From assembly GCA_024103415.1 (NCBI GenBank), contig JAGFIR010000193.1, positions 1-55,539 on the forward strand: DNA of 55,539 nt, written 5' to 3'. Positions 1 to 44,257 of this stretch are shown piece by piece (within the stretch, counting starts at the first letter, position 1; every line of letters starts with the position of its first letter). The position numbers were made by a program, and so were the translations under genes. The DNA is from Acidimicrobiales bacterium. GTDB lineage: Bacteria; Actinomycetota; Acidimicrobiia; Spongiisociales; ZC4RG35. Below the pieces are notes generated by a model that made no database searches, was not told the origin of the DNA, and worked only from the letters and a program-made list of their open reading frames with translations.

Positions 1-71
1 TCGCCCGTCGAAGGGGCTTCGGCTCCGGAGACGAGTCGCCTCGCCGGGGGCCCGCTTTCCCGGGGAGACGA

Positions 72-132
72 CATCGAGAGCCCCGAGAGGGCTGAGGCCT
101 CGGCCACAGCTCCCTCGGGGTTTCTCCTTTGT
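72..132. repeat. GC-rich hairpin repeat, copy 1 (partner at 787-850)
   Basis: The string 'gagagccccgagaggg...ggc(t/a)ccctcggggtttctc' occurs again at 787-850. Its arms are self-complementary (ccccgag(a)gg / ccctcgggg). Confidence 0.6.
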
Positions 133-134
133 GA

Positions 135-412
135 ACTTTGTCCTCCTGGAGCGTCAGCGACAGGAGGAAGGTACCGCCGCCAGAGGCGGCGGTAGGGGCA
201 GGCGTCTCCCATGTTCCGCGGCTCCGCCTGGAGCCGCACTTTGTCCCCCTGGAGCGTCAGCGACAGGGGGAAGGTACCGCCGCCGGAGGCGGCGGCAGGG
301 GGCAGGTGCTCCCTTGTTCCGCGGCTCCGCCTGGAGCCGCACTTTGTCCCCCTGGAGCGCTAGCGACAGGGGGAAGGTACCGCCGCCGGAGGCGGCGGTA
401 GGGGGCAGGTGT
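135..412. repeat. Tandem repeat, about 2.7 copies of a 103-bp unit made of three consecutive hairpins
   Basis: Units start at 135, 238 and 341 ('actttgtcc(c/t)cctggagcg...'). Each unit has three palindromes: ccccctg-N-caggggg, taccgccgcc-N4-ggcggcggta and gcggctcc-gcc-tggagccgc. Copies are near identical. Confidence 0.85.
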
Positions 413-786
413 CAGGTCGCGAAAACAAATCGGCGATTCGGCTTGTGCCCCTTCGGGGGATGGTTTACCTTCCCTCCCACGTCGAAGGGGCAACCCGGAG
501 ACGCACCAGATCGGGCGGGAAACCGACCGTGAAGGTTCACCGGAGATTCGGGTTCGCCCGAGTCGAAGGTCCTCCGACCCGCAGTCGGGCCTCGGCCTGA
601 AGGCGGATCGGACAGGCCGCTTCATCGGCGGGGATCCCTCGGGATCGTCACGATGGATCGGTCACCACAGGCCTCCGGGCCTGTATGAGTTCCCGGAGAC
701 GGGAACGCGGCCTTCGGGCCGCACCCGCTGTCGGCTTCGGCCGGTGGCAAAACCGGTTGGATTCGGGTCCCCGGCCCGATGAAGAC

Positions 787-850
787 CACCGAGAGCCCCG
801 AGAGGGTTGTGGCTTCGGCCTCGGCTCCCTCGGGGTTTCTCTTTTTGTCC
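787..850. repeat. GC-rich hairpin repeat, copy 2 (partner at 72-132)
   Basis: Same sequence family as 72-132. It lies just upstream of the lipoprotein gene. Confidence 0.6.
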
Positions 851-919
851 GGGATGTGGCTCCAGAACCCGGCGCAGCCAGCCGATGCTTATCGGGAACA
901 TCTGGTGGTAGGGGGGAAG

Positions 920-1654
920 ATGAAACGCCCGTTAGTGCTCCTTTCGATGCTCGCGCTCGTCTCGGCCTGCACCGCGCGGTCCGAGATCCACGTCCTCTTC
1001 GACTCACCGGACTCCGGCGTCGTCAGGATGGTCATGGCCGGTGACTCACAGCTTCGTGAGGCCATGCTCATGGATTATGAGGGGCCGGTCGAGCCCGACT
1101 GGGATGACCCCGACTTCGTCGCCGAGGTCTTCGATGCGGAAGACATCGCAGAGGAGGAAGGGACCGACGTGGCCGTCTACCGGAGCGGCGACTTCGTGGG
1201 GCTCGAGGCGACCAAGCGCTTCTCCTCCCTCGACGAGCTCTCCGGGATCATGCATGGCGACGGCGCCACAGGGAGCATGTCGTTCGTCACCGACGAGAAG
1301 ACCATCTCACTCGTGACTACGGGTTTCGTGGAGGACGTCACCGACGGGGCGGGGGCAGGGATGGCGGAGTTCCTCCAGGTCGAGATGAACCTCCACGTCA
1401 AGTTCCCCGGCGAGGTCGAGTCTCACAACGCAACCCGTGTGGCCGACGACGGCACGCTGGTCTGGGAGTACCGGATCGACGGGTCGGCGACCAGCTTCGA
1501 AGATCCGGAGGCCACGGCTCAACTGTCGTCCTCGGGCCTTCCCGTGGCTCTCGTGGTGGTTGCCGGCGTCGTGGTGGTCATCGCAGTGCTTGCGGTGGTG
1601 ATGGCGAGACGGCGGGAAGAGCCGGCCGGCCTGCCCGTCGAGTCCACGACCTGA
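920..1654 (+). CDS. Lipoprotein with C-terminal transmembrane anchor (LppM/DUF3153-like architecture)
   Basis: Internal ATG of ORF 779..1654 preceded by the purine-rich 'ggtaggggggaag'. The N-terminus MKRPLVLLSMLALVSAC has a lipobox. The C-terminus LPVALVVVAGVVVVIAVLAVVMARRRE is a TM helix followed by basic residues. The family name is from memory of the architecture only. Confidence 0.7.
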   Translation: MKRPLVLLSMLALVSACTARSEIHVLFDSPDSGVVRMVMAGDSQLREAMLMDYEGPVEPDWDDPDFVAEVFDAEDIAEEEGTDVAVYRSGDFVGLEATKRFSSLDELSGIMHGDGATGSMSFVTDEKTISLVTTGFVEDVTDGAGAGMAEFLQVEMNLHVKFPGEVESHNATRVADDGTLVWEYRIDGSATSFEDPEATAQLSSSGLPVALVVVAGVVVVIAVLAVVMARRREEPAGLPVESTT

Positions 1655-1732
1655 CATCGAGCCCGCCGCGGAGGGCGGGGCAGCTGGTCGGCGCGTAGGC
1701 TCTGGCGAGTCGCGACAACCAGGGAGGACTCG

Positions 1733-3334
1733 ATGGCCCACATGCAGGATTTCCCCCTGCTGCTCTCCACCCTCTACGACCATGCGGTCTGGATCCACCC
1801 CGACCAGGAGATCGTGTCGGTCGAGTCGGATCGCTCGCTGACCCGCACCACCTATGCGGAGACGGACGCCCGGGTGAGGAAGCTGGCGTCGGCCTTCGAC
1901 GCCCTCGGGATCGAACCGGGCGGAGCCGTGGGCACCTTCGCCTGGAACAACATCCGTCATCACGAGCTGTACTGGGCCACGGCCAACACGGGCCGGATCT
2001 GTCACACGATCAACATCAGGCTCTTCGCCGACCAGATCGTCTACGTGGCGAACCATGCACGGGACCAGGCCATGTTCGTCGATCCGGACCTCGTCCCTCT
2101 CATGGCTCCGCTGGCCTCGCAGATGGAGACGGTGAAGCACTGGGTGATCATGGGGCCCGAGGCGAGCGACGAGTTGCCCGGCTCCATCGCCTACGACGAT
2201 CTCATCGCCGACCAGCCCGAGCACGGGCACTGGCCGCTGCTCGACGAACGGTCGCCCATGATGCTCTGCTACTCCTCCGGGACCACCGGGCATCCGAAGG
2301 GGGTGGCGTACACCCAGCGATCCACCTATCTCCACACGGTGACCAACCTGGCCAACTTCCCGATCGAGCCGACCGACAACGTCCTCCCGGTGGTCCCGAT
2401 GTTCCATGCCGCGGCCTGGGGCTATCCGTACATGTCGGTGACCAGAGGGGCCAAGCTCACCTACCCGGGACCCGACCTGTCACCCCAGGGTCTGGTCAAC
2501 CTCTTCGCCAACGAGGAGGTGACGTTCAGTGCCGGTGTTCCCACCGTCTGGCTCGGGGTGAAGCAGTACCTGGAAGCGAACCCCGACGCCAGCCTGTCCA
2601 CCATCCGGGCATTCCTCTGCGGCGGCTCGGCGGTGCCCAGGGCGATGATCGAGTGGTTCTGGAAGACCCAGGGGATAAGGGTCGTCCAGGGGTGGGGCAT
2701 GACCGAGACCAACCCGGTGGCGTCCGTGGCGATCCTCAAGCCCCACATGGAGGACTGGCCGCTGGAAGAGCAGCTCGACCGGCTCGAGACCGCCGGGATC
2801 CCCGTTCCCGGTCTGCAGGTGAAGATCGTCGACGAGGTCGGCGAGGAGCTCCCCCACGACGGGGAGGCGTTCGGCGAGTTGCTCATCCGCGGTCCCTGGA
2901 TCGCCGGCGAGTACTACAAGGACGACCGCACCCCGCAGTCGTTCGTGGACGGATGGCTGCGCACCGGTGATGTCTGCAAGATCACGCCCGAGGGCTACAT
3001 CCGGATCACCGACCGCGCCAAGGACGTGATCAAGTCGGGCGGGGAGTGGATCTCGTCACTCGATCTGGAGAACGAGCTCATGGCCCATCCGGCGGTGGCG
3101 GAGGCCACCGTGGTCGGCCTGAAGCACCCCAAGTGGCAGGAGCGCCCGGTCGCCTTCGTCGTCAAGTCGGGCGAGGTGACCCAGGAAGAGCTGATCGCAC
3201 ATCTCGAGAAGCGGGTGGCGTCCTGGTGGCTCCCGGACAAGGTCGTGTTCGTCGACGCCATCCCGAAGACCGGCACGGGAAAGTTCGACAAGAAGGTGGT
3301 CAGGGACCAGTACTCCGACCTGTTGATGGGCTAG
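1733..3334 (+). CDS. AMP-dependent acyl-CoA synthetase (fatty-acid--CoA ligase family)
   Basis: 533 aa. Carries the AMP-binding motif YSSGTTGHPKGV, a later GWGMTET motif and a C-terminal GKFDKK lysine motif. Confidence 0.85.
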   Translation: MAHMQDFPLLLSTLYDHAVWIHPDQEIVSVESDRSLTRTTYAETDARVRKLASAFDALGIEPGGAVGTFAWNNIRHHELYWATANTGRICHTINIRLFADQIVYVANHARDQAMFVDPDLVPLMAPLASQMETVKHWVIMGPEASDELPGSIAYDDLIADQPEHGHWPLLDERSPMMLCYSSGTTGHPKGVAYTQRSTYLHTVTNLANFPIEPTDNVLPVVPMFHAAAWGYPYMSVTRGAKLTYPGPDLSPQGLVNLFANEEVTFSAGVPTVWLGVKQYLEANPDASLSTIRAFLCGGSAVPRAMIEWFWKTQGIRVVQGWGMTETNPVASVAILKPHMEDWPLEEQLDRLETAGIPVPGLQVKIVDEVGEELPHDGEAFGELLIRGPWIAGEYYKDDRTPQSFVDGWLRTGDVCKITPEGYIRITDRAKDVIKSGGEWISSLDLENELMAHPAVAEATVVGLKHPKWQERPVAFVVKSGEVTQEELIAHLEKRVASWWLPDKVVFVDAIPKTGTGKFDKKVVRDQYSDLLMG

Positions 3335-32959: not shown

Positions 32960-33733
32960 TCACGCGTCTCCCCGCTGCTTGTGGACGCGGCCCTCGACTC
33001 CGTGGAGGGAGAGGCCGGAGCCGGCGCCGTAACGCACCTTGGTCATTTCGGCGAGGATGGAGACCGCCACCTCCTGGGGGGTCTCGGCGCCGATGTCGAG
33101 ACCGATCGGCGAGTGGATGGTGCCGATCTCGTCCTTGGTGAAGCCAAGGTCTGTGAGGCGCTCGACGCGGAGGTTGTGGGTCCGCCTGCTTCCCATGGCC
33201 CCGATGTAGCGGGGACGGCCCTTGAGGGCTGACTCGAGGGCGGGGGTCTCGTGCCGCGGATCGTGGGACAACACGACGACCCACGTCCGCCGGTCGAAGG
33301 TGAGTTGATCCATCAGGTCGCGGGGCCATCCGAGCAGAACGCGATGCGCCTGGGGGAACCTCTCCTTGGTGGCGAACATCGGCCGGGAGTCGATGACCGT
33401 GACCCGGTAACCCATCTGGGTTGCGAAGGAGCAGAGGGCCTGCCCGATGTGGACGGCGCCGAAGACGTAGAGGTCGGGTGGGGGCGCCAGGGTCTCGATG
33501 AACACCTGGTGATCGCCGTATTCGAGGGCACGGTGCTGTTCGTGTTCCATGAGCGTCACGGCGTCCTCGCTCACGTCCGACACCAGTTCGTCGGGGAGGC
33601 CGCCGGCGATGATGGCCCCGTGCTCGTTCATGACCGCTTTGGCGCCGATGGCGGGCCCGGAGACGACGGTCGCCACCGAGCCGAACTGCTCGGCCTCGAG
33701 GAGGGAGGCTATGGCGTCGTTGACGTCACTCAC
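32960..33733 (-). CDS. XdhC/CoxI-family maturation factor, C-terminal (Rossmann-like) part
   Basis: GTG at 33733 overlaps the stop of the upstream XdhC N-domain ORF (GTGA). [33 protein letters not shown] and [21 protein letters not shown]. Confidence 0.75.
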
Positions 33734-34038
33734 CAGGGCTCGATGAAGACGTCGATCGTGCCGCCGCACGACATCCCGACCGCGAAGGCGTCCTCGTCGG
33801 CGATCCCGTAGGTGACCATCTTCGGCTCACCGGAGGCGATCACCTCCTGGGCGTGGAGATACACGTCGTTCTCCACGCAACCCCCGCTCACCGACCCCTC
33901 CATGTCGCCGGCGTCGGTGACCAGGAATTTGGAGCCTTCGGGCCGTGGGGCGCTCCCGTGAACACGGACGACGGTGGCGACCGCCACCTTCTTGCCTTCG
34001 CCGACCCAGCGGTTGCGAAGCGCCAGCTGACTTCTCAC
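33730..34038 (-). CDS. XdhC/CoxI-family N-terminal domain protein (stand-alone)
   Basis: [40 protein letters not shown] prefer GTG 34038 because the extension to ATG 34116 is rich in rare A/T-ending codons. Confidence 0.65.
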
Positions 34039-34178
34039 GATTCCCAGCCTACTCCCCGGACGCGGTCCCGAGCAGGCGACATCCCCGGGCTCGGGGTGTC
34101 TAGGCTGGGTTGACAAGACAAGCGGCTGTTCAGTGCCAGTGAACGGCAGCGCCTCGTTCTCAGGGGAGGTATCAGAGA

Positions 34179-34485: not shown

Positions 34486-35361
34486 GTGTACCCACCCAGA
34501 TTCGAGTACGAGGCCCCGGAGACGGTGGCCGAGGCCGTGGGGCTACTCGTCGAAGGACACGGCAGCGCCAAGGTCCTCGCCGGTGGCCAGAGCCTCATCC
34601 CCATGATGAAGACGCGCTTCGCATCACCCGAGATGCTCGTCGACATCAACGGCATCTCCGATCTCGAGTACCACCGGCGCGACGCCGACGGATCGATCCG
34701 CGTCGGGGCGCTCTGCCGGCACGCCACCCTCGAGCAGTCGCAGGTGCTCGCCGACCATCAACCGACCATGGCGGCGGCTTCGGCCCTCGTCGCCGACCCG
34801 ATCGTCCGCAACCGCGGCACCCTCGTCGGCTCTCTGTGCCATGCCGATCCGCAGGGTGACTGGGCGGCCGTTATGGCCTCCCTCGGGGCGTCCGTGATCG
34901 CACAGGGGCCCACCGGCGAGCGGGTCATCCCCGTCCAGGAGTTCGCGGTCGGGCCGTTCCAGAACGCCCTCGCCTACGACGAGATCGCGGTGGCCGCCGT
35001 CGTCCCGCCCCCCAAGGGCAAGCCCGAGGGTGGCTATCTCAAGATGGAGCGCCGTGTCGGCGACTTCGCCACCGCCGGTGTGGCCGTTTCGCTGGACCGC
35101 TCGGCGGGCGGTGTCGCCCGGGCGGGCATCGCTCTCACCGGTGTCGGTCCCCGCACGATCGTCGCCGAGGAGGCCGCGGCCATCCTCGTCGAACGGGGTC
35201 TCGACCCCGATTCCATCGCCGAGGCGGCCCGCGCCGCGGCGGGTGCCGCTCAGCCGAAGACCGATCACCGGGGTACCGCCGAGTACAAGCGGCACCTGGT
35301 TGAAGTGTTCACCAGCAGGATCCTGAAGAGGATCGCCGGATCGAGTGAGGAGGCGGCCTGA
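34486..35361 (+). CDS. coxM: Aerobic CO dehydrogenase medium (FAD-binding) subunit
   Basis: GTG start after 'gaggagg'. (V)[28 protein letters not shown]. 291 aa. Confidence 0.85.
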
Positions 35362-35903
35362 TGGGCAGCTTGTTCGAAGTCGTCCCCGCAGACACCCAGG
35401 ACGAGGTGCCCCGTCGCAGGGTCACGGTGACCGTCAACGGAACGCCCATGTCGGCGGTGATCGAGACGAGGCTCCTGCTCGTCCACCTGCTCCGTCAGGC
35501 CTTCAAGCTCACCGGAACCCACATGGGATGTGACACCACCCACTGCGGTGCGTGCACGGTGCTCTTCGACGGCAAGCCGGTGAAGAGCTGCACGATGCTC
35601 GCGGTCCAGGCCGACGGTCACGAGATCACGACGGTCGAAGGCCTCGCCGGGCCGTCCGAGCTCCACCCGATCCAGGAGGGCTTCAAGGAGGAGCACGGTC
35701 TCCAGTGCGGCTTCTGCACGCCGGGGATGATGCTCAGCGCCAAGGCGCTCCTCGATCGCAATCCCGACCCGGACGAGGACGAGATCCGCTGGGCGTTGAG
35801 CGGCAACCTCTGCAGGTGCACCGGGTACCAGAACATCGTGAAGTCCGTGCAATGGGCGGCGCGCAAGATGAACCCCCAGCAGGGCCAGGAGGTGAGCGAA
35901 TGA
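35361..35903 (+). CDS. coxS: Aerobic CO dehydrogenase small ([2Fe-2S]) subunit
   Basis: [11 protein letters not shown] and CGFCTPG, then LCRCTGY. Confidence 0.9.
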
Positions 35904-38284
35904 CTGCTCTCGACGAGATCAAGATCGGCGGTCTCGGCGCCAGTCGCCGCCGGGTGGAGGACAACCGCTTCATCCGGGGCAAGGGCAACTATGTCGACGA
36001 CATCACCCTGCCGGGGATGCTGCACATGGAGATCCTCCGCTCGCCGGTGGCGCACGCGCGCATCGTCTCCATCGACACCTCCAAGGCCTGGGCGATGCCC
36101 GGTGTCCGTCTGGTCATCACGGGCGAGACGCTGGCCGCCCGCAACCTGGCGTGGATGCCGACCCTGTCGTACGACACACAGGCCGTCCTCGCCACCGACA
36201 AGGTGCGCTTCCAGGGCCAGGAGATCGCGGCGGTCATCGCGGACGACCCCTACACGGCAAAGGACGCCTGCGAGGCGATCGTCGTCGAGTACGAGCCGCT
36301 CCCCGTCATGGTCAACCCCTACCAGGCAATGGAGGACGGGGCGGAGCGGATCCGCGACGACAAGGAGAACCAGCCGGACAACGTGATCTACGACTGGGAG
36401 GTCGGCGACCGCGACGGCACCGAGCGGGCGTTCGCCGAGGCGGACTTGGTCTCCAAGATCCAGCTCCACTATCCGCGGTCCCACCCGTCGCCGATCGAGA
36501 CCTGCGGGTCGATCGCCGACTTCAACCGGGCCACACAGAAGCTCACGGTCTACATGACCACCCAGGCGCCCCACATCATCCGGGCGGCGGTGGCCATGGT
36601 CGCCGAATTGCCGGAGCAGATGATCCGCATCATCGCCCCGGACATCGGCGGCGGCTTCGGGAACAAGGTCCCGGTGTACCCGGGCTATGTGGTGTCGATC
36701 CTGGCATCGATCCTGTTGGAGAAGCCGGTGAAGTGGATCGAGGACCGCACCGGCAACCTGATCTCCACCGGCTTCGCCCGGGACATCTACCTCGAGGGCG
36801 AGATGGCCCTCCGGAAGGACGGGAAGATCCTCGGCGTCCGGATGAACTGCATCGCCGACCACGGCGCCTTCTTCTCGGACGCCCAGCCGTCGAAGTTCAA
36901 GATCGGGCTCCTGCACTCGGCATTCGCCTGTTACGACATCCCGGCGGCGCATCTCACCGCCCGGGGCGTCTACACCAACAAGGCGCCTGGCGGTGTGGCC
37001 TACAGGTGCTCATTCCGGGTCACCGAGGCCATGTTCTTCCAGGAGCGGATGGTGGAGACCGCGGCGATCGACCTGGGCATGGACCCGGCGGAGATCCGCA
37101 GGGTCAACTTCGTCCGGGACGACGACTTCCCGCACCGCACCGCCTTCGGGTTCCTCACCGACTCGGGTCAGTACACGAAGTGCCTCGACCTTGGTCTCGA
37201 GGCGATCGGCTACGACACGTTCCGGCAGGAGCAGGAGGAGGCCCGCAAGCGGGGCCGTCTCCTCGGCATAGGCATCTCCACGATGACCGAGCCGCTGGGC
37301 GCCGGGAACAGCCGGGAGTTCGACATCCTCGGGATCAAGATGTTCGACTCCGCCGAGCTGCGGATCCACATGACGGGGAAGGCACTGCTCCGCACCGGCG
37401 CCCGCAGCCAGGGCCAGGGGCACGAGACCACCTGGGCCCAGATCGTGGCCCACGAGCTCGGCCTTCCCGCCGAGGACGTGACGGTCGAGGAGGGTGACAC
37501 CGACACCGCGCCCTTCGGGATGGGCACATACGCCTCCCGGAGCACGCCGGTGGCCGGCGCGGCCATCTCCATGGCCGCCCGCAAGATCCGGGCGAAGGCG
37601 CGAAAGATCGCGGCGCATCTCCTCGAGGTGTCCGAAGAGGACGTCGAGTGGGAGCTGGGCCGGTTCTATGTGCGGAGCCGTCCTGAGCAGGGCGTGACGA
37701 TCCAGGAAGCAGCCATGGCCGCCTACTCCAACATGCCCGACGGCATGGAGCCCGGTCTGGAGGCCATCGCCTACTACGACCCGCCCAACCTGACGTGGCC
37801 GTTCGCCGCGTACATCGCCAAGGTCGAGGTCGACCCCGAGACCGGTGTCTGGGACGTCCTGCGGATGGTGGCGGTCGACGACTGCGGCGTCCGGATCAAC
37901 CCGATGATCGTGGAGGGCCAGATCATGGGCGGCCTCACCGAGGCCTACGCCATGGCCAGCATGCAGTACATCACCTTCGACGCCGAGGGCAACTGCATCG
38001 GCTCCAACTTCACCGACTACCTCCTGCCGACGGCATGGGAGACGCCGGGGTTCGAGCTCCACGAGGTCGTCACCCCGTGCCCGCACCATCCGATCGGTGC
38101 CAAGGGGATCGGCGAGTGCGCCGCGGTCGGCGGACCGGCGGCGTTCGTCAACGCCGTCATCGACGCGGTCAAGCACCTGGGCGTGAAGAACATCGACATG
38201 CCCGTGCTTCCCGACCGGGTCTACGAGGCGATCAAGACGGGCAAGGACGTGAGCGGAGCGCCCCCGGTGAGGACGGACGGATGA
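35900..38284 (+). CDS. coxL: Form I aerobic CO dehydrogenase large (Mo-Cu) subunit
   Basis: 794 aa from the ATG overlapping the coxS stop (ATGA). The active-site loop VAYRCSFR (36998-37018) is the form I signature. The coxM-S-L gene order is also form I. Confidence 0.88.
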
Positions 38285-39240
38285 GCGCACGAGCCGAGGC
38301 CTGGGAAGTCCTCGAACTGGCCACGGAGATGGCTCGCCAGGGCGAGATGTTCGCCCTGGCGACAGTGGTGTGGCGGCAGGGGCCTTCCTCGGGTCATCAG
38401 GGCTCCCGGGCCATCATCACCCCGGCGGGTGAGATCCACGGCTGGATCGGCGGCGCTTGCGCCGAACCGGTGGTGCTCGGCGAGGCGAGGCGAGCGCTCG
38501 AGGACGGGGAGCCCCGGCTCATCCTCCTCGGCACCCGGGACGCATTCGGCGAGATGCCCGAGGGGATGCTGGTCGTCCCCATGTCGTGTCAATCGGAGGG
38601 CGCCATGGAGGTGTACATCGAACCCGTGCTGCCATCGCCGCAGGTGATCGTCGTGGGCGACAGCCCGATGACGTCCACCCTGGTCGAGATGGCCGGTCTG
38701 CTCGGCTGGAAGGCGCAGCTCGTTTCCGCCACGGAACTGGACCCCAACCAGCTCGGACCGACCTCGGTCGTCGTGGTCGCCACCCAGGGACACGGCGACG
38801 AGGAGGCCGTCGAGGCGGCCGTGCGATCCAAGGCCGGCTTCGTGGGCCTGGTCGCGTCGGCGAGGAGGGCCGAGGCGGTCAAGGGTTACCTTGCCGACAG
38901 GGGAGTGGCCGACGACGCAATCGCCCGGATCAAGGCGCCGGTCGGCGTCGACCTCGGCCACACCAGCCACAAGGAGATGGCGGTGTCGATCCTCGCCGAA
39001 CTGGTCCGCCTCCGGGCGAGTGGCGATCTCTTCGCGGCGGCGCCGCAGCGAGCCCGTCTCCAGATGATCGAGCCGGAGACCGCCATCGATCTGGTCTGCG
39101 GGATGACGGTGGCCGCCGACGAGTCGAGCCGGCCCTACGAGTATGGGGGCACCACCTACTACTTCTGCTGTCCGGGCTGTCGGGCGGCGTTTGTGAAGGA
39201 CCCCGAGTCGTACATCGCGGAGGGCGCGCATGCAGATTGA
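38281..39240 (+). CDS. XdhC-family maturation factor fused to a C-terminal YHS/TRASH-type metal-binding domain
   Basis: ATGA overlap with coxL. N-terminal domain LATVVWRQGPSSGHQGSRAII...GWIGGACAEP, Rossmann part VIVVGDSPM and GLVASARRA...PVGVDLGH. C-terminus DLVCGMTVAADESSRPYEYGGTTYYFCCPGCRAAFVKDPESY. Confidence 0.8.
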   Translation: MSARAEAWEVLELATEMARQGEMFALATVVWRQGPSSGHQGSRAIITPAGEIHGWIGGACAEPVVLGEARRALEDGEPRLILLGTRDAFGEMPEGMLVVPMSCQSEGAMEVYIEPVLPSPQVIVVGDSPMTSTLVEMAGLLGWKAQLVSATELDPNQLGPTSVVVVATQGHGDEEAVEAAVRSKAGFVGLVASARRAEAVKGYLADRGVADDAIARIKAPVGVDLGHTSHKEMAVSILAELVRLRASGDLFAAAPQRARLQMIEPETAIDLVCGMTVAADESSRPYEYGGTTYYFCCPGCRAAFVKDPESYIAEGAHAD

Positions 39241-39796
39241 GAACACGTTCGAGGTACCCCAGTCGGTCGAGGAGACCTGGGCGTTCTTCCAGGACATCCC
39301 GGGGGTAGCCGCGTGCCTCCCCGGCGCCAACCTGGACCGCCAGGTGGGCCCCAACGAATACGAGGGCACCGTCACGATCGCGCTCGGCCCGGTGCGCATG
39401 GACTTCGCCGGCCGTGCCGAGATCGTCGAACGGGACGACGCCACCAAGACGATCGTGGTCAGGGCCAACGGCGCCGACAAGAAGGGTCGGGGCCAGGCCG
39501 CTATGGACATCAAGGCTCGGCTCGAGCCGGCGGGTGCTGGGACCAGGGTCCACCTGGGCCAGGACCTGCAGCTGGCGGGCGCCGCGGCCCAGTACGGACG
39601 GGGCATGGTCACCGACGTCAACCGGGTGCTCGTCGAGGACTTCGTGGAAAGCATGAAGGCGACCCTCGCGGGCGAGGCCCCGGGTGCGAAGTCACGCTCC
39701 GCCGGCGGCCTGATCATCGGCCTGAGAGCGATGTGGATGGCCCTGAAGCGGGTCGCCGCACGGTTCTTCCTTCCCTACGACCCGGCCCGAGTTTGA
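39230..39796 (+). CDS. coxG: CoxG-like SRPBCC protein with hydrophobic C-terminal tail
   Basis: MQIENTFEVPQSVEETWAFFQDIPGVAACLPGA...GTVTIALGPVRMDFAG, typical CoxG. The extra C-terminus GGLIIGLRAMWMALKRVAARFF is hydrophobic. 11-nt overlap with the previous gene. Confidence 0.85.
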   Translation: MQIENTFEVPQSVEETWAFFQDIPGVAACLPGANLDRQVGPNEYEGTVTIALGPVRMDFAGRAEIVERDDATKTIVVRANGADKKGRGQAAMDIKARLEPAGAGTRVHLGQDLQLAGAAAQYGRGMVTDVNRVLVEDFVESMKATLAGEAPGAKSRSAGGLIIGLRAMWMALKRVAARFFLPYDPARV

Positions 39797-39808: not shown

Positions 39809-40063
39809 TTGACCTGGTGGTGGATAGGCAACGTGATCCTGGTGGTGGCGGTGGTCCCCGTGCTGGTGGCCCTGCTCAACCGGGTTCTGGCCGCACTGGA
39901 ACGGATCCGGAAGGCCTCCGACGAGATCCTCGATGGCGGGGTCGGGATCATCGAGGAAGTGGACCGGGTGCCCCAGCTCCTGGACACGACGGACAAGACC
40001 ATCGCCGAAGTGGCGAACGGCGCCGTGAGGTACGCCGGTTCGGTCGCCAAGCTGCTGGATTGA
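39809..40063 (+). CDS. Small single-pass membrane protein P1 (84 aa), member of a 5-gene tandem paralog array
   Basis: TTG start after 'gaggaggtg'. TM WWWIGNVILVVAVVPVLVALL, then the helical tail NRVLAALERIRKASDEILDGGVGIIEEVDRVPQLLDTTDKTIAEV. Confidence 0.7.
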   Translation: MTWWWIGNVILVVAVVPVLVALLNRVLAALERIRKASDEILDGGVGIIEEVDRVPQLLDTTDKTIAEVANGAVRYAGSVAKLLD

Positions 40064-40076
40064 GAGGGGAGGAGCT

Positions 40077-40304
40077 TTGCCAGCTGCAGCAATAGTGACC
40101 CTGGTGATCGGCGGGCTGATCATCGCCGCCGCCGCCATCGGGCTGATCCGGGTCATCGGTCACCTCCGGGCGACCCTGGCCACCCTCGACGCCCTCAACG
40201 GTGGCGTCCAAGTGATCGCCGATCGGACCGCCCCGGTGGCGCCGGTCGTCGAGTCGGTCAACACCAGCTTGAAGCCCGTCAGCGATTTCGCCGAGTCGAT
40301 CTGA
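40077..40304 (+). CDS. Small single-pass membrane protein P2 (75 aa)
   Basis: TTG start after 'ggggaggag'. TM IVTLVIGGLIIAAAAIGLI, tail RVIGHLRATLATLDALNGGVQVIADR... It aligns with P1 (L-x-R-V-[LI]..L...D.L-[DN]-GGV-x-[IV]-I). Confidence 0.7.
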   Translation: MPAAAIVTLVIGGLIIAAAAIGLIRVIGHLRATLATLDALNGGVQVIADRTAPVAPVVESVNTSLKPVSDFAESI

Positions 40305-40314
40305 GGAGGGGGAG

Positions 40315-40575
40315 ATGCTGTTTCCAACAACCGCAGACGCCCCCTGGCTGGTCGGCTTCCTGATCGGCATCGCCATCGTCCTGGTGGTGGTGGCGCTCGT
40401 CCTGCCGATCCTGGTGCTCGCCAAGCGCATCGGTGATCGGGCCGGGTCGATCAACGCAGGTCTGGAGCGGGCGGTGGAGCACACCGCGGCGCTCAAGGGC
40501 CTGGAGCAAACGAACACGATGGCCATCAACGTGATCCAGGGTCTGGAGCGCGGCCGGAAGCGACTGGGAGGATGA
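40315..40575 (+). CDS. Small single-pass membrane protein P3 (86 aa)
   Basis: ATG after 'gaggaggggga'. TM WLVGFLIGIAIVLVVVALVLPILVL followed by a helical tail. Confidence 0.7.
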   Translation: MLFPTTADAPWLVGFLIGIAIVLVVVALVLPILVLAKRIGDRAGSINAGLERAVEHTAALKGLEQTNTMAINVIQGLERGRKRLGG

Positions 40576-40865
40576 CCGTGGTCTTCGGATTGACAGAAAC
40601 TCAAGAGTCGCTCTGGATGACCGCCAACATCCTGGGCCTGATCGTGGTGGTGGCGGTGGCTGCCCTGCTCACGATCCTCGTGATGCTGGTGCGGAAGATC
40701 GAGCAGAGGGTCGAGACCATCAAGACGACCCTCAGGGCAGCGGAGGCGAACACCGCTGACGCCGCTCTGCTCGACACGACCGCGAGGGGCGTGGATCTGG
40801 TGCTGGTGGAGGGCCTGGAGCATCACCTGTTCCTGGGCCGGGTCCTGGACAAGGTGCGCAAATGA
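40572..40865 (+). CDS. Small single-pass membrane protein P4 (97 aa)
   Basis: ATGA overlap with P3. TM ANILGLIVVVAVAALLTILVML. The tail contains LLDTT, as in P1. Confidence 0.7.
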   Translation: MTVVFGLTETQESLWMTANILGLIVVVAVAALLTILVMLVRKIEQRVETIKTTLRAAEANTADAALLDTTARGVDLVLVEGLEHHLFLGRVLDKVRK

Positions 40866-41224
40866 GGAACCTCATCATCTTCACGGTCGTCGACATCGTC
40901 CTGCTCATCGCCGGGCTGGCGGTCTATCTCTGGATCGTGGGATCGCAGTTGAAGCGGGTCGCCGCCGGTCTGGAGGAGTGCCGCGACCTGGTGAGCCAGA
41001 TCCGGGCCAACGCCGAGCCGATCGAGGCCAACCTGGAGCACATCAACCACACCGGCAGGGTCATCGCCGGTGCGTTGCCACTGCTCTACGACATGGCCGA
41101 GGGAATCGTCAGCGGTGCCACCTTCGATCCCGAAGAGGCGCATGCCGAGCGGGGTCCCGCTCTCCCGGCGTCGGGCACCCGGCGTTCCCGGCTTCTCGAC
41201 AGCGTCGGTTACCACCCGGAATAG
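40862..41224 (+). CDS. Small single-pass membrane protein P5 (120 aa)
   Basis: ATGA overlap with P4. TM LIIFTVVDIVLLIAGLAVYLWIV, a helical tail and a basic/disordered C-terminus. Confidence 0.65.
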   Translation: MRNLIIFTVVDIVLLIAGLAVYLWIVGSQLKRVAAGLEECRDLVSQIRANAEPIEANLEHINHTGRVIAGALPLLYDMAEGIVSGATFDPEEAHAERGPALPASGTRRSRLLDSVGYHPE

Positions 41225-41230
41225 CGCGGC

Positions 41231-41436
41231 TTATCGGGATTTCTCCCCCACGTAGCGGTCAGCGGAGTGGGGGAGTACCCCGTTAGGGGGAGGGGGCGCG
41301 GCCCGAAGGGCGGCAAGGAACCCACCGCCGGCGGCGGGGTTTATCGGGATCTCTCCCTCACGTAGCGGTCAGCGGAGTGGGGGAGTACCCCGTTAGGGGG
41401 GAGGGGGCGCGGCCCGAAGGGCCGCAAGGAACCCAC
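41231..41436. repeat. Type B GC-rich palindromic repeat, two tandem copies (period 110 bp)
   Basis: 'ttatcgggat(t/c)tctcc(c/t)(c)cacgtagcggtcagcggagtgggggagtaccccgttaggggg(g)agggggcgcggcccgaagggc(g/c)gcaaggaacccac' starts at 41231 and 41341. It sits at the junction of two convergent operons. Confidence 0.85.
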
Positions 41437-41449
41437 GGCTGGCAACCTG

Positions 41450-41501: not shown

Positions 41502-41945
41502 CTAATCGCCCGGTTGGCGGCCGGTGGTGAGCGGCCCGGTGGTCGGCGCCTGGTACTGGCCGATCCAGGTGTCCTCCCACGCCGGGTCGTATTGCTCGGC
41601 ATTGCAGCCGGGCCGGTACACCGAGATCAACTCCCGGCAGATCAGCTCCCGGTGTGACCGGGTACCGCCGGGGACCTCGTAGTAGGCGACGTGGAGGGCG
41701 TAGCGATCGGCCCGCTGCAGCCAGCACGGTGCCGCCTCGTGGGCGAACGGGAACCCCGCCTGCGAGAGGTCGTCGGCGTGTCCGACGTAGATGACCCCGT
41801 AGTGCTCCGGCTTCCGCTCCGGCTCGGGCTTGTAGAGGACGGTGAACACGGCCCCGACCTTCGGGGGCGTCCAGCCGGCCAGCAAGCGGGGACCTTCGAA
41901 CGGGTACCCGGCGAGGGACCCGAGTCGGATCACATCGGCTCCCAC
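41502..41945 (-). CDS. Hypothetical 147-aa protein with a possible GIY-YIG-like motif pattern
   Basis: High GC3. AVFTVLYK...YGVIYVGHADDL...R.H.ELICRELISVYRPGCNAEQY loosely fits GIY-(10)-YIG...R...E..LI...P.yN. Last gene of the minus-strand cox accessory operon; the start overlaps the upstream gene by 16 nt. Confidence 0.5.
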   Translation of the reverse strand: MGADVIRLGSLAGYPFEGPRLLAGWTPPKVGAVFTVLYKPEPERKPEHYGVIYVGHADDLSQAGFPFAHEAAPCWLQRADRYALHVAYYEVPGGTRSHRELICRELISVYRPGCNAEQYDPAWEDTWIGQYQAPTTGPLTTGRQPGD

Positions 41946-42229
41946 TCGTAGTCGATCTCTTCATCCTCCCGGATGGTCTCGATCTGGGTGATCGGCCACA
42001 CCGGGAGCCCGGCGGTATGAACCGCATGGTTGAAGATCTCCACGGCGCGCTGTGCCGCCTCCTCGGAATCCGCGCCTTCGACGATGATCTGGGCCCCGTA
42101 GGACGCGGTCCCCATCCCCGATGCGATCCCGCCCGCCGTGGCCACGGCGTCGGCCAGTTCGACCACCTCGTCGAGTTCGATGATGCGGTCGCCCTCCGCC
42201 ATGATCGAGACACTCCAGCGGTGGGTCAT
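41930..42229 (-). CDS. Hypothetical 99-aa acidic protein
   Basis: Internal ATG (MTHRWSVSIMAEGDRIIELDEVVELADAV...) of ORF 41930..42502. ATGA overlap with the coxE-like stop. High GC3. Confidence 0.55.
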   Translation of the reverse strand: MTHRWSVSIMAEGDRIIELDEVVELADAVATAGGIASGMGTASYGAQIIVEGADSEEAAQRAVEIFNHAVHTAGLPVWPITQIETIREDEEIDYEWEPM

Positions 42230-43377
42230 CGCAGCTCCGGAAGGTGCTCGGCGAATGACTCGAGACTCGCCAGGTCGTGCCCCGATGTGATCAGGTCGAC
42301 ATGCGGGGCCGCCACCATCATCCCGAGCGTCGACGGGACGAAGTTGCGGTCGGCCCCCTTGTGGGGGTTCACCCACACGATCTTGTGACTGAGTCGGCTC
42401 ATCTTCTCCATGGCTCGGGCCAGCAAAGCAGGATCTCCGCGATCCAGCCCGTCGGAGCAGATGACGACGACTGCCCCCCGGCTCATGCCCTTGCGACCCC
42501 ACCCCCTCACGAAGTCGTCGAGTGACCGGCCGATCTGGGTGCCGCCCTCCCAGTCGAACACCGACCGGGCGGCATCGTCGAGAGCGTCGTCGACCCGTCG
42601 CCGCTCCAGGGACTTGGTGATGCGGGTGAGCCGGGTGCCGAAGCAGAACACCTCGACCCGATGGGCGGCTTGCTTGGTCGAATAGGCGAACTGGAGCAGG
42701 GCACGGGAGTAGTCCGCCATCGACCCGGACACGTCGAGGATCAGGACCAACGGTCGGACCTTCCGCCGCCGTCGCCGCCAGTAGAGCTCGGGTGGCGCTT
42801 CGAGTGACCGCATCGCCGTGCGCGCGGTGCGACGCATGTCCGGTCGGGAGCCCGCCGGCGCCTTCTCGGTCCGCCGGGATCGGCGGGTCGGCGGCACCAT
42901 CCGGACCTTTTTCATGATCCGCCTGATGGCCGCCATCTCCTCTTCGGTGCAGGCGGCGAACGACTTGTTCCGCCAGATCTCCACCCGGGAGGCCACCAGC
43001 CCCATGTGGGTGCCCTCTTCTTCGTCGCCGGGCTCGGGCGGGACCACGTCGGGCACGTCGACGTCGATCTGACGGACGACCTGGGCGTGCTTGCGCATCA
43101 ACTGCCGGATCTCGTCGGGCATGGGGGACCCGTCGCCGAGGAAATACTCCCGGAACACCCGGTCATAGGTGGCCAGGTGCTGGCGGCGGGCGACGAGGGT
43201 TGTCCGCCCCGCCCAGAAGACGTCCACCAGATCGGCGGGGTCGAGGATGGCGACCGCGTCGCAGAACGTGAGCATCTCGCCCGAGCCCACCGGCATGCCG
43301 GCCTTGCGGAGGACGTCACCAAAGCCCGTCAGCGACGCGACGTACTCGCGTGCCGGGAGGGTGCCCTGGTCAGCCAT
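42226..43377 (-). CDS. coxE: VWA-domain CoxE-like protein (copy 1)
   Basis: Internal ATG (MADQGTLPAREYVASLTGF...). VWA MIDAS LVLILDVSGSM near the C-terminal half. 8-nt overlap with the upstream MoxR gene. Confidence 0.8.
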   Translation of the reverse strand: MADQGTLPAREYVASLTGFGDVLRKAGMPVGSGEMLTFCDAVAILDPADLVDVFWAGRTTLVARRQHLATYDRVFREYFLGDGSPMPDEIRQLMRKHAQVVRQIDVDVPDVVPPEPGDEEEGTHMGLVASRVEIWRNKSFAACTEEEMAAIRRIMKKVRMVPPTRRSRRTEKAPAGSRPDMRRTARTAMRSLEAPPELYWRRRRRKVRPLVLILDVSGSMADYSRALLQFAYSTKQAAHRVEVFCFGTRLTRITKSLERRRVDDALDDAARSVFDWEGGTQIGRSLDDFVRGWGRKGMSRGAVVVICSDGLDRGDPALLARAMEKMSRLSHKIVWVNPHKGADRNFVPSTLGMMVAAPHVDLITSGHDLASLESFAEHLPELR

Positions 43378-44257
43378 CGACCGCGATCCGGTCGAGCGCT
43401 CCCAACACGGTCTGCATGTCGTCGTGGTCCTTGACCACCGCTCCCAGGGTGTCCCGGATGGACTCCTTGTCCGGATCGTCGACACCGAGCACCGACATCG
43501 TCTCCACCCAGTCGAGGGTCTCCGCCACCCCGGGCGGCTTGTCCAGCTCGAGCGACCGCAGACGGTTGACCATCTCCACGATCTTCCGCGCCAGCGTCTC
43601 GGTGGTCGCGGGAGCCCGTGTCATCACGATCTCGACCTCGCGTTCGGGGTCGGGGTAGCCCACCCAGTGATAGAGACAGCGACGCTTCAGCGCGTCGTGC
43701 AGCTCCCGGGTGCGGTTGGAGGTGAGCACCACGAGCGGGGGTGCCTCTGCGGCCACCGTTCCCAGCTCCGGGATCGTGATCTGGAAGTCGGAGAGCAACT
43801 CGAGCAGGAAAGCCTCGAACTCGTCGTCCGCCCGGTCGATCTCGTCGATGAGGAGGACGGCGCGGTCCCCCCTCCGGATGGCGGCGAGGAGGGGGCGCTC
43901 GAGGAGGAACTTGGGACCGAACAGCTTGTCGACCGACTCGTCGGTGGCGAGCTCCGCCTCGGAGAGCGCCCGGATCTGCAGCATCTGCCGGGCGTAGTCC
44001 CACTCGTAGAGGGCCTGGTTGGTGTCGATCCCCTCGTAGCACTGGAGGCGGATCAGCTCGCGGTCGAGCACCGACGCCAGCGCCTTGGCCAGCTCCGTCT
44101 TCCCGACACCGACCTCGCCTTCCAGCAGGAGGGGCTTGCCCAGGGTCAGCGAGACGTACGCGGCGGTGGCCAGACCGCGGTCGGCGAGGTACCCGCCGGT
44201 CTCGAGCAGGCGGGTGAGGTCGGAGACGGACGAGAGGGAGGCGTTCTCGGGGGCCAC
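43370..44257 (-). CDS. coxD: MoxR-type AAA+ ATPase, CoxD-like (copy 1)
   Basis: Walker A LLEGEVGVGKTELAKALA, IRLQCYEGID, Walker B VLLIDEIDRADDEFEAFLLE. Confidence 0.85.
   Translation of the reverse strand: MAPENASLSSVSDLTRLLETGGYLADRGLATAAYVSLTLGKPLLLEGEVGVGKTELAKALASVLDRELIRLQCYEGIDTNQALYEWDYARQMLQIRALSEAELATDESVDKLFGPKFLLERPLLAAIRRGDRAVLLIDEIDRADDEFEAFLLELLSDFQITIPELGTVAAEAPPLVVLTSNRTRELHDALKRRCLYHWVGYPDPEREVEIVMTRAPATTETLARKIVEMVNRLRSLELDKPPGVAETLDWVETMSVLGVDDPDKESIRDTLGAVVKDHDDMQTVLGALDRIAVDG

Follow-up and report, generated by a model that had tools for sequence, protein, structure and literature searches.

Five conserved single-pass membrane proteins encoded behind coxG in actinobacterial carbon monoxide dehydrogenase clusters recur beside [NiFe]-hydrogenases

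Oxidation of atmospheric CO and H2 sustains a large part of the soil microbiota and removes large amounts of both gases. To our knowledge, the transfer of electrons from the soluble trace-gas enzymes to the membrane has been worked out solely in Mycobacterium smegmatis (the CoxG shuttle and the HucM tube). Here we analyse a contig from an Acidimicrobiales bacterium (NCBI GenBank assembly GCA_024103415.1, contig JAGFIR010000193.1; "the window" is the whole stretch of 55,539 nucleotides (nt)) in which a cox cluster for a form I Mo-Cu carbon monoxide dehydrogenase (CODH) continues, directly behind coxG, into an array of five small genes that we call P1 to P5 (Table 1). The assignment of the cluster to form I follows from a CoxL with an AYXCSFR-type active site together with coxM, coxS, coxG, coxD and coxE close by: the CoxL translation contains AYRCSFR, its best solved relatives are M. 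smegmatis 8UEM and the CODHs of Oligotropha and Hydrogenophaga, and Pfam names COXG, VWA_CoxE, AAA_5 and XdhC within the cluster. As detailed below, the quintet is an unnamed and strongly conserved part of this CO-oxidising cluster and probably a membrane anchor or coupling device shared among trace-gas enzymes.

An original prediction, made from the sequence alone, described P1 to P5 as tandem paralogous single-pass membrane proteins attached to the CODH operon and possibly forming a scaffold or tether for the enzyme. Its account of the gene structure was confirmed from the sequence: there are five open reading frames (ORFs), spaced by 12, 13 and 10 nt from coxG to P3 and joined by ATGA overlaps at P3/P4 and P4/P5. 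The ribosome-binding sites that it placed before the first three genes are present as GAGGAGG-like sites 5' of each start, and the codon bias is equally clear, with a G+C fraction at third codon positions (GC3) of 0.84-0.88 against 0.37-0.49 at second positions (GC2), the same pattern as in the neighbouring cox genes. A scan of the stretch from coxM to P5 found no promoter-like or terminator-like site inside, and the five genes share the orientation of coxMSL-xdhC-coxG. In a search of the window for further copies of the array, the cox-linked copy was the single one.

The architecture of one helix plus a tail is likewise common to all five proteins. Each has a single strongly hydrophobic 19-residue window near the N-terminus (Kyte-Doolittle mean 2.7-3.4), and the lysine and arginine residues are distributed unevenly around this transmembrane (TM) helix, with none before it in P1-P4, one in P5, and two to four just after it. 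By the positive-inside rule this distribution puts the N-terminus outside and the C-terminus inside for all five, so that each is a single-pass protein with a short external N-terminus and a cytoplasmic tail. The AlphaFold2 model of P1 (predicted local distance difference test score, pLDDT, 91.3) has a continuous 51-residue helix (residues 2-52) and a return helix (54-82), and a Foldseek search of the PDB with this model gave no match; the model of P5, built on a shallow five-row alignment (pLDDT 58.9), is confident for the helix at residues 2-50 alone. Conserved motifs are WWIGN, LLNRVLAALERIR and GAVRYAGSVAKLL in P1, which is the best-conserved member of the array; GGV...VP...SVNxSLKPVxDF in P2; a C-terminal GLxRGRxRLGG in P3; ANTA...EGLxHHLFLGRVL in P4; and GALPLLYGMAExIV together with a C-terminal PASGxRRSRLxDxVGY in P5.

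Table 1. Genes of the P1-P5 array and of the cox cluster around it (window coordinates; aa, amino acids; TM, transmembrane helix).
Feature	Position	Strand	Description
P1	39809-40063	+	84 aa, TTG start, group A; TM at about residues 9-27, then predicted cytoplasmic helical hairpin
P2	40077-40304	+	75 aa, TTG start, group B; TM at about residues 6-24, then helical tail
P3	40315-40575	+	86 aa, ATG start, group A; TM at about residues 17-35
P4	40572-40865	+	97 aa, ATG start, group A; TM at about residues 20-38; ATGA overlap with P3 stop
P5	40862-41224	+	120 aa, ATG start, group B; TM at about residues 5-23; ATGA overlap with P4 stop
coxM-coxS-coxL	34540-38284	+	coxM start uncertain, end 35361; coxS 35361-35903; coxL 35900-38284
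xdhC/coxI-like	38281-39240	+	Pfam XdhC_CoxI, XdhC_C, YHS; start overlaps coxL stop
coxG	39230-39796	+	SRPBCC quinone-carrier domain, linker, C-terminal tail; TGA stop 12 nt before P1
147-aa protein	41502-41945	-	no family; convergent block
190-aa ORF	41930-42502	-	doubtful; convergent block
coxE	42226-43485	-	ORF, start uncertain; Pfam VWA_CoxE
coxD	43370-44257	-	Pfam MoxR-type AAA+

How are the five proteins related to one another? Where they can be aligned at all, their pairwise identity is about 21-30%. Profile-profile comparison (hhalign) was carried out first with cox-linked profiles and then with diverged copies from outside cox added. Profiles built from the cox-linked orthologues alone demonstrate a single relation, P3-P4 (96.7% probability). 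With the diverged copies added, P1-P4 reaches 96% (E 4e-9), P1-P3 94%, P3-P4 98% and P2-P5 98%. Because the best-scoring model for three diverged P2' sequences was that of P5, the P2/P5 test was repeated with families defined by gene position only, and the relation held (96.4%, E 1e-9); overall, the P2-P5 comparisons lie at 96-98% probability with E between 1e-9 and 4e-14. Judged by these profiles, the array falls into two paralogue groups, A (P1, P3 and P4) and B (P2 and P5), and comparisons between the groups, at 14-52% probability, are not significant. The term paralogous thus holds, though with other pairings than those first claimed. In particular, the alignment of P1 with P2 that had been called clear is not supported by profile comparison, and the LLDTT noted in both P1 and P4 lies in register with their significant profile alignment.

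Scans of the five proteins and of their orthologue sets against Pfam and NCBIfam returned nothing at threshold; groups A and B are two protein families without a matching model in either database, and P1-P5 belong to no curated family. Searching PDB sequences with P1 and P5 profiles gave only designed coiled coils and noise, and a TPR protein of 892 aa picked up by the P1 profile was set aside as a repeat-driven false positive. A resemblance to DUF948/YtxG-type general-stress proteins had been suggested in the original prediction, and it survives in part. No P protein reaches the gathering cut-off of DUF948 (PF06103; 37.2 bits): among the proteins of the window, P2 reaches 14.0 bits (E 0.058), P3 reaches 12.1 bits, and P1, P4 and P5 give no match; 4 of 29 P2 orthologues match at E <= 1 (best E 0.0079); diverged P2' and P5' proteins score 13.5-17.7 bits; and orthologues of P1, P3 and P4 give essentially nothing. 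What stands is that the matches of P2/P5-type proteins, several distant members among them, are in register (profile positions about 1-74), and that the architecture, with a TM helix at the N-terminus and about 60-90 aa of helical sequence behind it, is the same, a likeness that is unspecific; what does not stand is membership, all scores (12-18 bits) being far below 37.2. The UniRef label "DUF948 domain-containing" on two orthologues was not reproduced with Pfam. DUF948, a family of bacterial single-TM proteins, has itself no assigned function, and membership would explain little.

We now turn to the conservation of the array. A P1 profile search of GTDB species genomes found at least 491 stretches with relatives, and on the best 80 loci we mapped the array proteins of the window, counting in each case the loci that extend far enough. 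These loci span two classes, Acidimicrobiia and Actinomycetes, and come from Acidimicrobiia, Streptosporangiaceae, Nocardioides, Jatrophihabitans, Rugosimonospora, metagenome-assembled genomes (MAGs) of Mycobacteriales and the isolate Amycolatopsis rubida DSM 44637. P1 is present in 80/80 with a median identity to the window of 69%; coxG directly adjoins it, at most 200 nt upstream, in 78/78; P2-P5 all follow in order in 71/71 (P3 of three loci being seen only with a hidden Markov model, HMM); coxL lies upstream of the array in 68/68; and convergent coxE and coxD lie downstream in 50 of 53. The linkage of the array to coxG is strict and goes well beyond what chance would produce.

The individual genes are preserved in equal detail. 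Strict ORF extraction left coxG and P1-P5 all intact in 54 loci, with near-constant lengths (CoxG 187-201 aa, mostly 191-197; P1 84; P2 75; P3 79-101; P4 89-101; P5 about 120), and the P4/P5 ATGA overlap is retained in most of them. Orthologues have an ATG start exactly at the position of the window's TTG, and a Shine-Dalgarno-like site is kept in 79/81 for P1, 68/78 for P2 and 59/72 for P4, P5 being coupled to P4 through the overlap. Median identities to the window are 56% for P2, 55% for P3, 59% for P4 and 60% for P5, compared with 85% for CoxL, 73% for CoxS, 66% for CoxM, 53% for CoxG, 71% for CoxD and 57% for CoxE, which makes P1 comparable to CoxS and CoxM and better conserved than CoxG. 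P1-P5 are real genes under strong purifying selection. At 90% identity the P1 family falls into at least 6437 clusters, every one labelled "hypothetical" and none with a Pfam domain; the cluster containing the P5 protein of the window bears a name from an Acidimicrobiia MAG. A tblastn search of annotated plasmids with P1 and diverged P1' gave no match. As a separate observation, many Streptosporangiaceae-type loci (L006, L010, L012, L016, L018 and others; about 1-3200, minus strand) have, a few kb upstream, a second divergent coxMSL-like cluster whose CoxL is 53-58% identical and which has no adjoining quintet.

The array is not confined to cox loci. An exhaustive P1 profile search revealed a distant P1' subfamily (82 aa, pattern M.LWWIGN ... 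RY..A...IL), which comprises about 1900 clusters at 90% identity. We scanned its genomic contexts and 80 metagenome loci with P1-P5 HMMs; the neighbours in non-cox loci were clustered and then named with Pfam. In non-cox loci all five families co-occur, as would be expected of obligate partners, usually in the order P3'-P4'-P5'-P1'-P2'. In variants, the blocks P1'P2' and P3'P4'P5' are a few kb apart or divergent, and sometimes only P1'-P2' is in view. About 13 of about 24 distinct non-cox loci of at least 4 kb have hydrogenase-related neighbours. Recurrent among these are a [NiFe]-hydrogenase's small and large subunits, to which the group 1h enzyme 5AA5 is nearest among solved structures, a NifU-Rieske protein, HypF, and a HycI-TPR-BirA-like-CooC-like set, the last being the maturation set of group 1m clusters (Ray et al., PMC9561532). 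Hydrogenase-linked loci also bring a VWA_CoxE protein (in nine) and a MoxR AAA+ protein that shares 53-55% identity with the CoxD of the window (in four); the MoxR-VWA pair is convergent with the module in L092, L111 and L132 and co-oriented with it in L105. Around the hydrogenase-linked modules of L085, L087, L090 and L094, many kb of sequence contain neither a VWA nor a MoxR gene. The remaining contexts include an Mce operon, a recurrent coiled-coil trio together with DUF4383, and DUF6941 accompanied by a NuoF-like protein.

It is important to note what these copies do to the original prediction. The array is indeed invariant behind coxG, but the complete set of five families turns up outside cox loci as well, and so attachment to CODH is only part of the picture. 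Homologues unrelated to cox genes, which had been named as a finding that would speak against the hypothesis, exist in the literal sense, but their contexts are not random and are mostly [NiFe]-hydrogenase clusters. The quintet is thus not specific to cox, a diverged set recurs by high-affinity-type [NiFe]-hydrogenase clusters, and the finding is more general than was first supposed. Because of this hydrogenase link, the idea of a scaffold or tether is still plausible and indeed strengthened.

Several further observations were made on the non-cox loci. In L092 (13674-15855), L111 (1211-3422) and L132 (7136-9374), the last genes of high-affinity-type [NiFe]-hydrogenase operons code for the MoxR AAA+ protein and for a VWA_CoxE-like protein with about 30% identity to CoxE; we know of no description of a CoxD/CoxE-like pair in hydrogenase clusters. 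In L083/L084 (9153-20261; Pseudonocardiaceae), one strand carries a diverged quintet and, immediately downstream of it, a 190-aa protein and a full Mce operon, the latter with an ATPase, two MlaE-type permeases and six MlaD/Mce proteins; the Mce context was considered as a general rule and dropped, being a single case without recurrence. A trio of 230-400-aa coiled-coil proteins is frequent beside the non-cox module (L092 4820-7732, L132 22-3091, L168 1654-3876, L086 5876-8223), with weak Laminin_II, DUF7310, perilipin and DUF948 matches, and a DUF4383 membrane protein and two unnamed families recur alongside it. Finally, the P2' of one lineage (L168 6087-6467, L170 2191-2598) has a long, lysine/alanine-rich basic C-terminal extension, such as KKASAAGKTAGKKATKKQAKKGRGSR.

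The protein that adjoins the array in every cox locus is CoxG (Pfam COXG, E 1e-16), a homologue of M. smegmatis CoxG (PDB 8UDS, E 4e-27). The original prediction had pointed to an extra hydrophobic tail at its C-terminus. Such a tail is present, at residues of about 159-184 (nt about 39704-39781), but it is not new, having been described for M. smegmatis (PMC12202499), and here it is basic and amphipathic rather than plainly hydrophobic: its consensus, GxxIGLRAAxMALxRVFRRFFLPYQP, has several Arg/Lys, and its median 19-residue hydrophobicity of 1.13 lies below that of a classical TM helix. The tail is conserved (0.79) like the ligand-binding domain (0.76), with an invariant MAL.RV.RRFF.PY, which points to contact with a protein more than to simple anchoring in lipid. 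When the RRFF.PY motif was sought in the proteins of hydrogenase-linked loci, it was found only in CoxG.

Elsewhere in the cluster, a YHS/TRASH metal-binding domain forms the C-terminal part of the xdhC/coxI-like gene product and is a candidate for copper handling; the fusion is kept in most related loci, and in locus L001 the YHS part is called as a separate 44-aa gene, probably through an assembly error. Upstream of coxM, at 32960-34116 on the minus strand, lies a second gene for an XdhC-type accessory function, apparently split into overlapping ORFs of 128 aa and 269 aa. Downstream of the array, the convergent block as a whole occupies 41502-44257 on the minus strand. Its 147-aa protein, which has no Pfam family, is found with a median identity of 63% in 62 related cox loci, always at the end of the coxD-coxE block, and was not found in hydrogenase-linked loci. 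The gap between P5 and this gene is filled by a tandem duplication of about 110 nt (41224-41443), whose two copies are 92-94% identical and contain G+C-rich hairpin-forming stretches such as CTCCCCCAC...GTGGGGGAG; there was no Rfam match to it and no further copy within the window, and in relatives the gap varies from 30 nt to several kb.

We favour, with a confidence that falls somewhat short of even, the reading that P1-P5 make up a membrane-anchored hetero-oligomeric assembly coupling soluble CODH and CoxG to the membrane quinone pool. The five proteins would be subunits of one assembly, each crossing the cytoplasmic membrane once with its N-terminus outside and sending a long helix or helical hairpin into the cytoplasm, where these parts would come together as a hetero-oligomeric helical stalk or tube at the membrane's inner face. 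Such a stalk could hold the soluble Mo-Cu CODH, or more directly the menaquinone carrier CoxG, at the membrane, and CO-derived electrons would thereby reach the quinone pool. The basic amphipathic C-terminal helix of CoxG would be the most likely contact point, and the diverged five-protein set may do the equivalent job for high-affinity-type [NiFe]-hydrogenases. That there is one complex of five, that it touches CoxG or CODH, and that it couples to quinone, we infer from a convergence of observations: the strict and deep synteny coxG-P1-P2-P3-P4-P5; translational coupling with no terminator-like site inside the operon; the purifying selection on P1 seen in its 69% median identity; the recurrence of the five families as a set outside cox, in a hydrogenase context that is functionally parallel; the conserved CoxG tail; and the precedents of a CoxG menaquinone shuttle that needs membrane attachment, of the HylTM1-5 stalks and of the HucM/Ncp tubes. 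The shape of a stalk is suggested by the C-in topology of all five and by the long helix of P1 with its return helix (pLDDT 91).

Several points weigh against this reading. Some module copies show no redox enzyme in view (L083/L084 with Mce; L086 with coiled-coil proteins and DUF4383). Hydrogenase-linked loci have neither CoxG nor the tail motif, so that the docking surface must differ between the two contexts. P1-P5 contain no conserved cofactor-binding motif and no Cys/His cluster except the HH of P4. The module adjoins a MoxR-VWA pair in both contexts, which fits maturation equally well. And the assembly, with its contact to CoxG, is something we infer purely. A wider version, which we hold to be rather doubtful, would make P1-P5 and their hydrogenase counterparts one ancient stalk of three A-type and two B-type subunits, with HylTM1-5 in the same family, and would see in it the missing link of soluble CODH and high-affinity [NiFe]-hydrogenases to menaquinone in most soil Actinomycetota; CoxG or the small subunit of the hydrogenase might then dock onto the stalk, or the stalk might act as a quinone-conducting tube.

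The MoxR-VWA pair leads to a different proposal, namely that the array serves not electron transfer but, as a membrane platform, the maturation of metal centres, and would recruit the MoxR AAA+ protein CoxD and the VWA protein CoxE for completion of the Mo-Cu site and a related pair for the hydrogenase. The array does converge on coxE-coxD in nearly all cox loci (50/53), and VWA_CoxE and CoxD-like MoxR proteins again adjoin the diverged module by hydrogenases (nine and four loci); moreover, Pelzmann and colleagues reportedly found that CoxD, CoxE and CoxF of Oligotropha behave as membrane-associated proteins despite having no TM helices. Yet it is coxG to which the array is translationally coupled, with coxD and coxE on the other strand, and several hydrogenase-linked modules lack a nearby VWA or MoxR gene. 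The coxD/E-like genes occur in mycobacterial cox clusters too, though there rv0368c is given as Rv0369c's partner in the operon, which is weak evidence. On balance we consider the maturation platform unlikely.

A second alternative is that the proteins are a general membrane-stress or dormancy factor of the DUF948/YtxG kind, merely co-regulated with trace-gas oxidation and without a physical link to CODH. This draws on the recurrent, in-register, sub-threshold DUF948 matches of the B-type members, on the two UniRef names (not reproduced with Pfam), and on stand-alone copies with coiled-coil/perilipin-like proteins and DUF4383, one of them by an Mce operon. We regard it as improbable: the place behind coxG is invariant across two classes (78/78 and 71/71 loci), with gaps of 10-13 nt or overlaps, and is much tighter than co-regulation needs; the cox-linked copy is a distinct and very conserved orthologue set; and about 13 of the 24 or so distinct non-cox loci of at least 4 kb have hydrogenase-related neighbours.

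One apparent lead towards a direct link between CoxG and P1 was rejected. A first search, with the P1-P5 proteins joined end to end as the query, returned proteins of 258-551 aa resembling CoxG-P1 or multi-P fusions, and about 12 database proteins of 282-294 aa join a CoxG domain to P1, with two more that include XdhC-YHS. Their linkers are Arg/Pro-rich and out of frame, the frame-change point differs between sequences, and their contigs are long-read assemblies with disrupted P4, P5 and coxE genes. In all 54 clean loci coxG is closed by a stop codon (TGA, TAA or TAG), its frame relative to P1 varies, and the distance from the stop to P1 is 7-101 nt, typically 10-13, with one 1-nt overlap. The fusions are therefore assembly indel artefacts, although these ORFs still showed the kept gene order. 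Such chimeric ORFs (proteins P0001-P0023, loci L001 and L002), arising from indel errors in long-read metagenome assemblies of a region of high G+C, are numerous in public protein collections and can mimic Rosetta-stone fusions. The notion that P1 is a detached CoxG membrane anchor, split off from its gene, with the rest of the array unrelated filler, is accordingly rejected as extremely improbable: it had in its favour these fusion-like proteins and the fact that coxG and P1 of the window share a frame, with TGA and 12 nt between them, but the fusions carry frameshift junk, no clean locus of 54 has an uninterrupted coxG-P1 frame, and P2-P5 are conserved like P1's neighbours and accompany P1 outside cox.

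A cox cluster of this form is present in several hundred species genomes of actinobacteria and is represented by thousands of protein clusters from metagenomes, and five highly conserved membrane proteins, with which the current model does not reckon, are thereby added to the CODH system of many soil actinobacteria. The presence of the same five families by hydrogenases suggests one coupling device common to CO and H2, and culturable carriers such as Amycolatopsis (A. rubida DSM 44637) and Nocardioides (N. humi) make the candidate device testable.

How does the quintet compare with known systems? The form I cox cluster of Oligotropha carboxidovorans has the larger, multi-pass membrane proteins CoxB, CoxC, CoxH and CoxK, and nothing in the window resembles these, the distinction being one of description, without sequence comparison. 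The original prediction's view that the array lies outside the described cox toolkit stands, in that no paper within reach of our literature search describes it in cox clusters or links such a quintet to CODH.

Closest in enzyme system is M. smegmatis, where CoxG, an SRPBCC domain with a flexible linker and a C-terminal membrane helix, binds menaquinone and shuttles it to soluble CODH (Kropp et al. 2025, PMC12202499). In both systems a soluble CODH must reach membrane menaquinone, and both CoxG proteins have a linker and a C-terminal helix. The tail in M. smegmatis and M. tuberculosis, however, is described as a TM helix and a sufficient anchor, whereas that of the window is basic and amphipathic with a hydrophobicity of about 1.1, and the shuttle model does not include the five extra membrane proteins of the window cluster; the M. 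smegmatis paper (PMC12202499) does not mention small membrane genes. According to a table in a 2026 review, M. tuberculosis coxG (Rv0369c), whose C-terminus is called a transmembrane domain, has the VWA gene rv0368c as its partner in the operon (PMC13525633). A true TM anchor on CoxG and a five-protein module may be alternatives, a picture that the rv0368c entry fits.

A possible functional analogy is offered by the DUF1641 proteins (HucM, ForE, Ncp), which form quinone-conducting tubes (PMC13524794): these are helical oligomers through which a soluble respiratory enzyme is fixed to the membrane and can reach quinone. They are homo-tetramers without TM helices, in contrast to five different single-pass proteins, and Pfam finds no DUF1641 match for P1-P5 at E <= 10.

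[quoted passage not shown] Their ORFs lie between GenBank SMB94698 and SMB94678, their mutual identity is 12-30%, HylTM4 has a tri-Cys tail (bioRxiv 10.1101/2020.08.06.239558), and they have been modelled as two tube-like membrane stalks contacting HylS (bioRxiv 10.1101/2025.11.03.686391). There are differences: the HylTM genes lie between hylS and hylL, whereas the array of the window lies behind coxG and the hydrogenase-linked quintets stand to one side of the small and large subunit genes, which adjoin each other (L092, L111, L130, L168), and no P or P' protein has a C-terminal tri-Cys motif like that of HylTM4. The likeness is one of description. Both are sets of five consecutive genes for short single-pass proteins (75-120 aa for P1-P5) of low mutual identity; both sit in the cluster of a soluble trace-gas oxidoreductase, and for HylTM1-5 a tube-like stalk tying the enzyme to membrane and quinone has been proposed from modelling only; and the P1-P5 families, as our analysis finds, are likewise tied to hydrogenase clusters.

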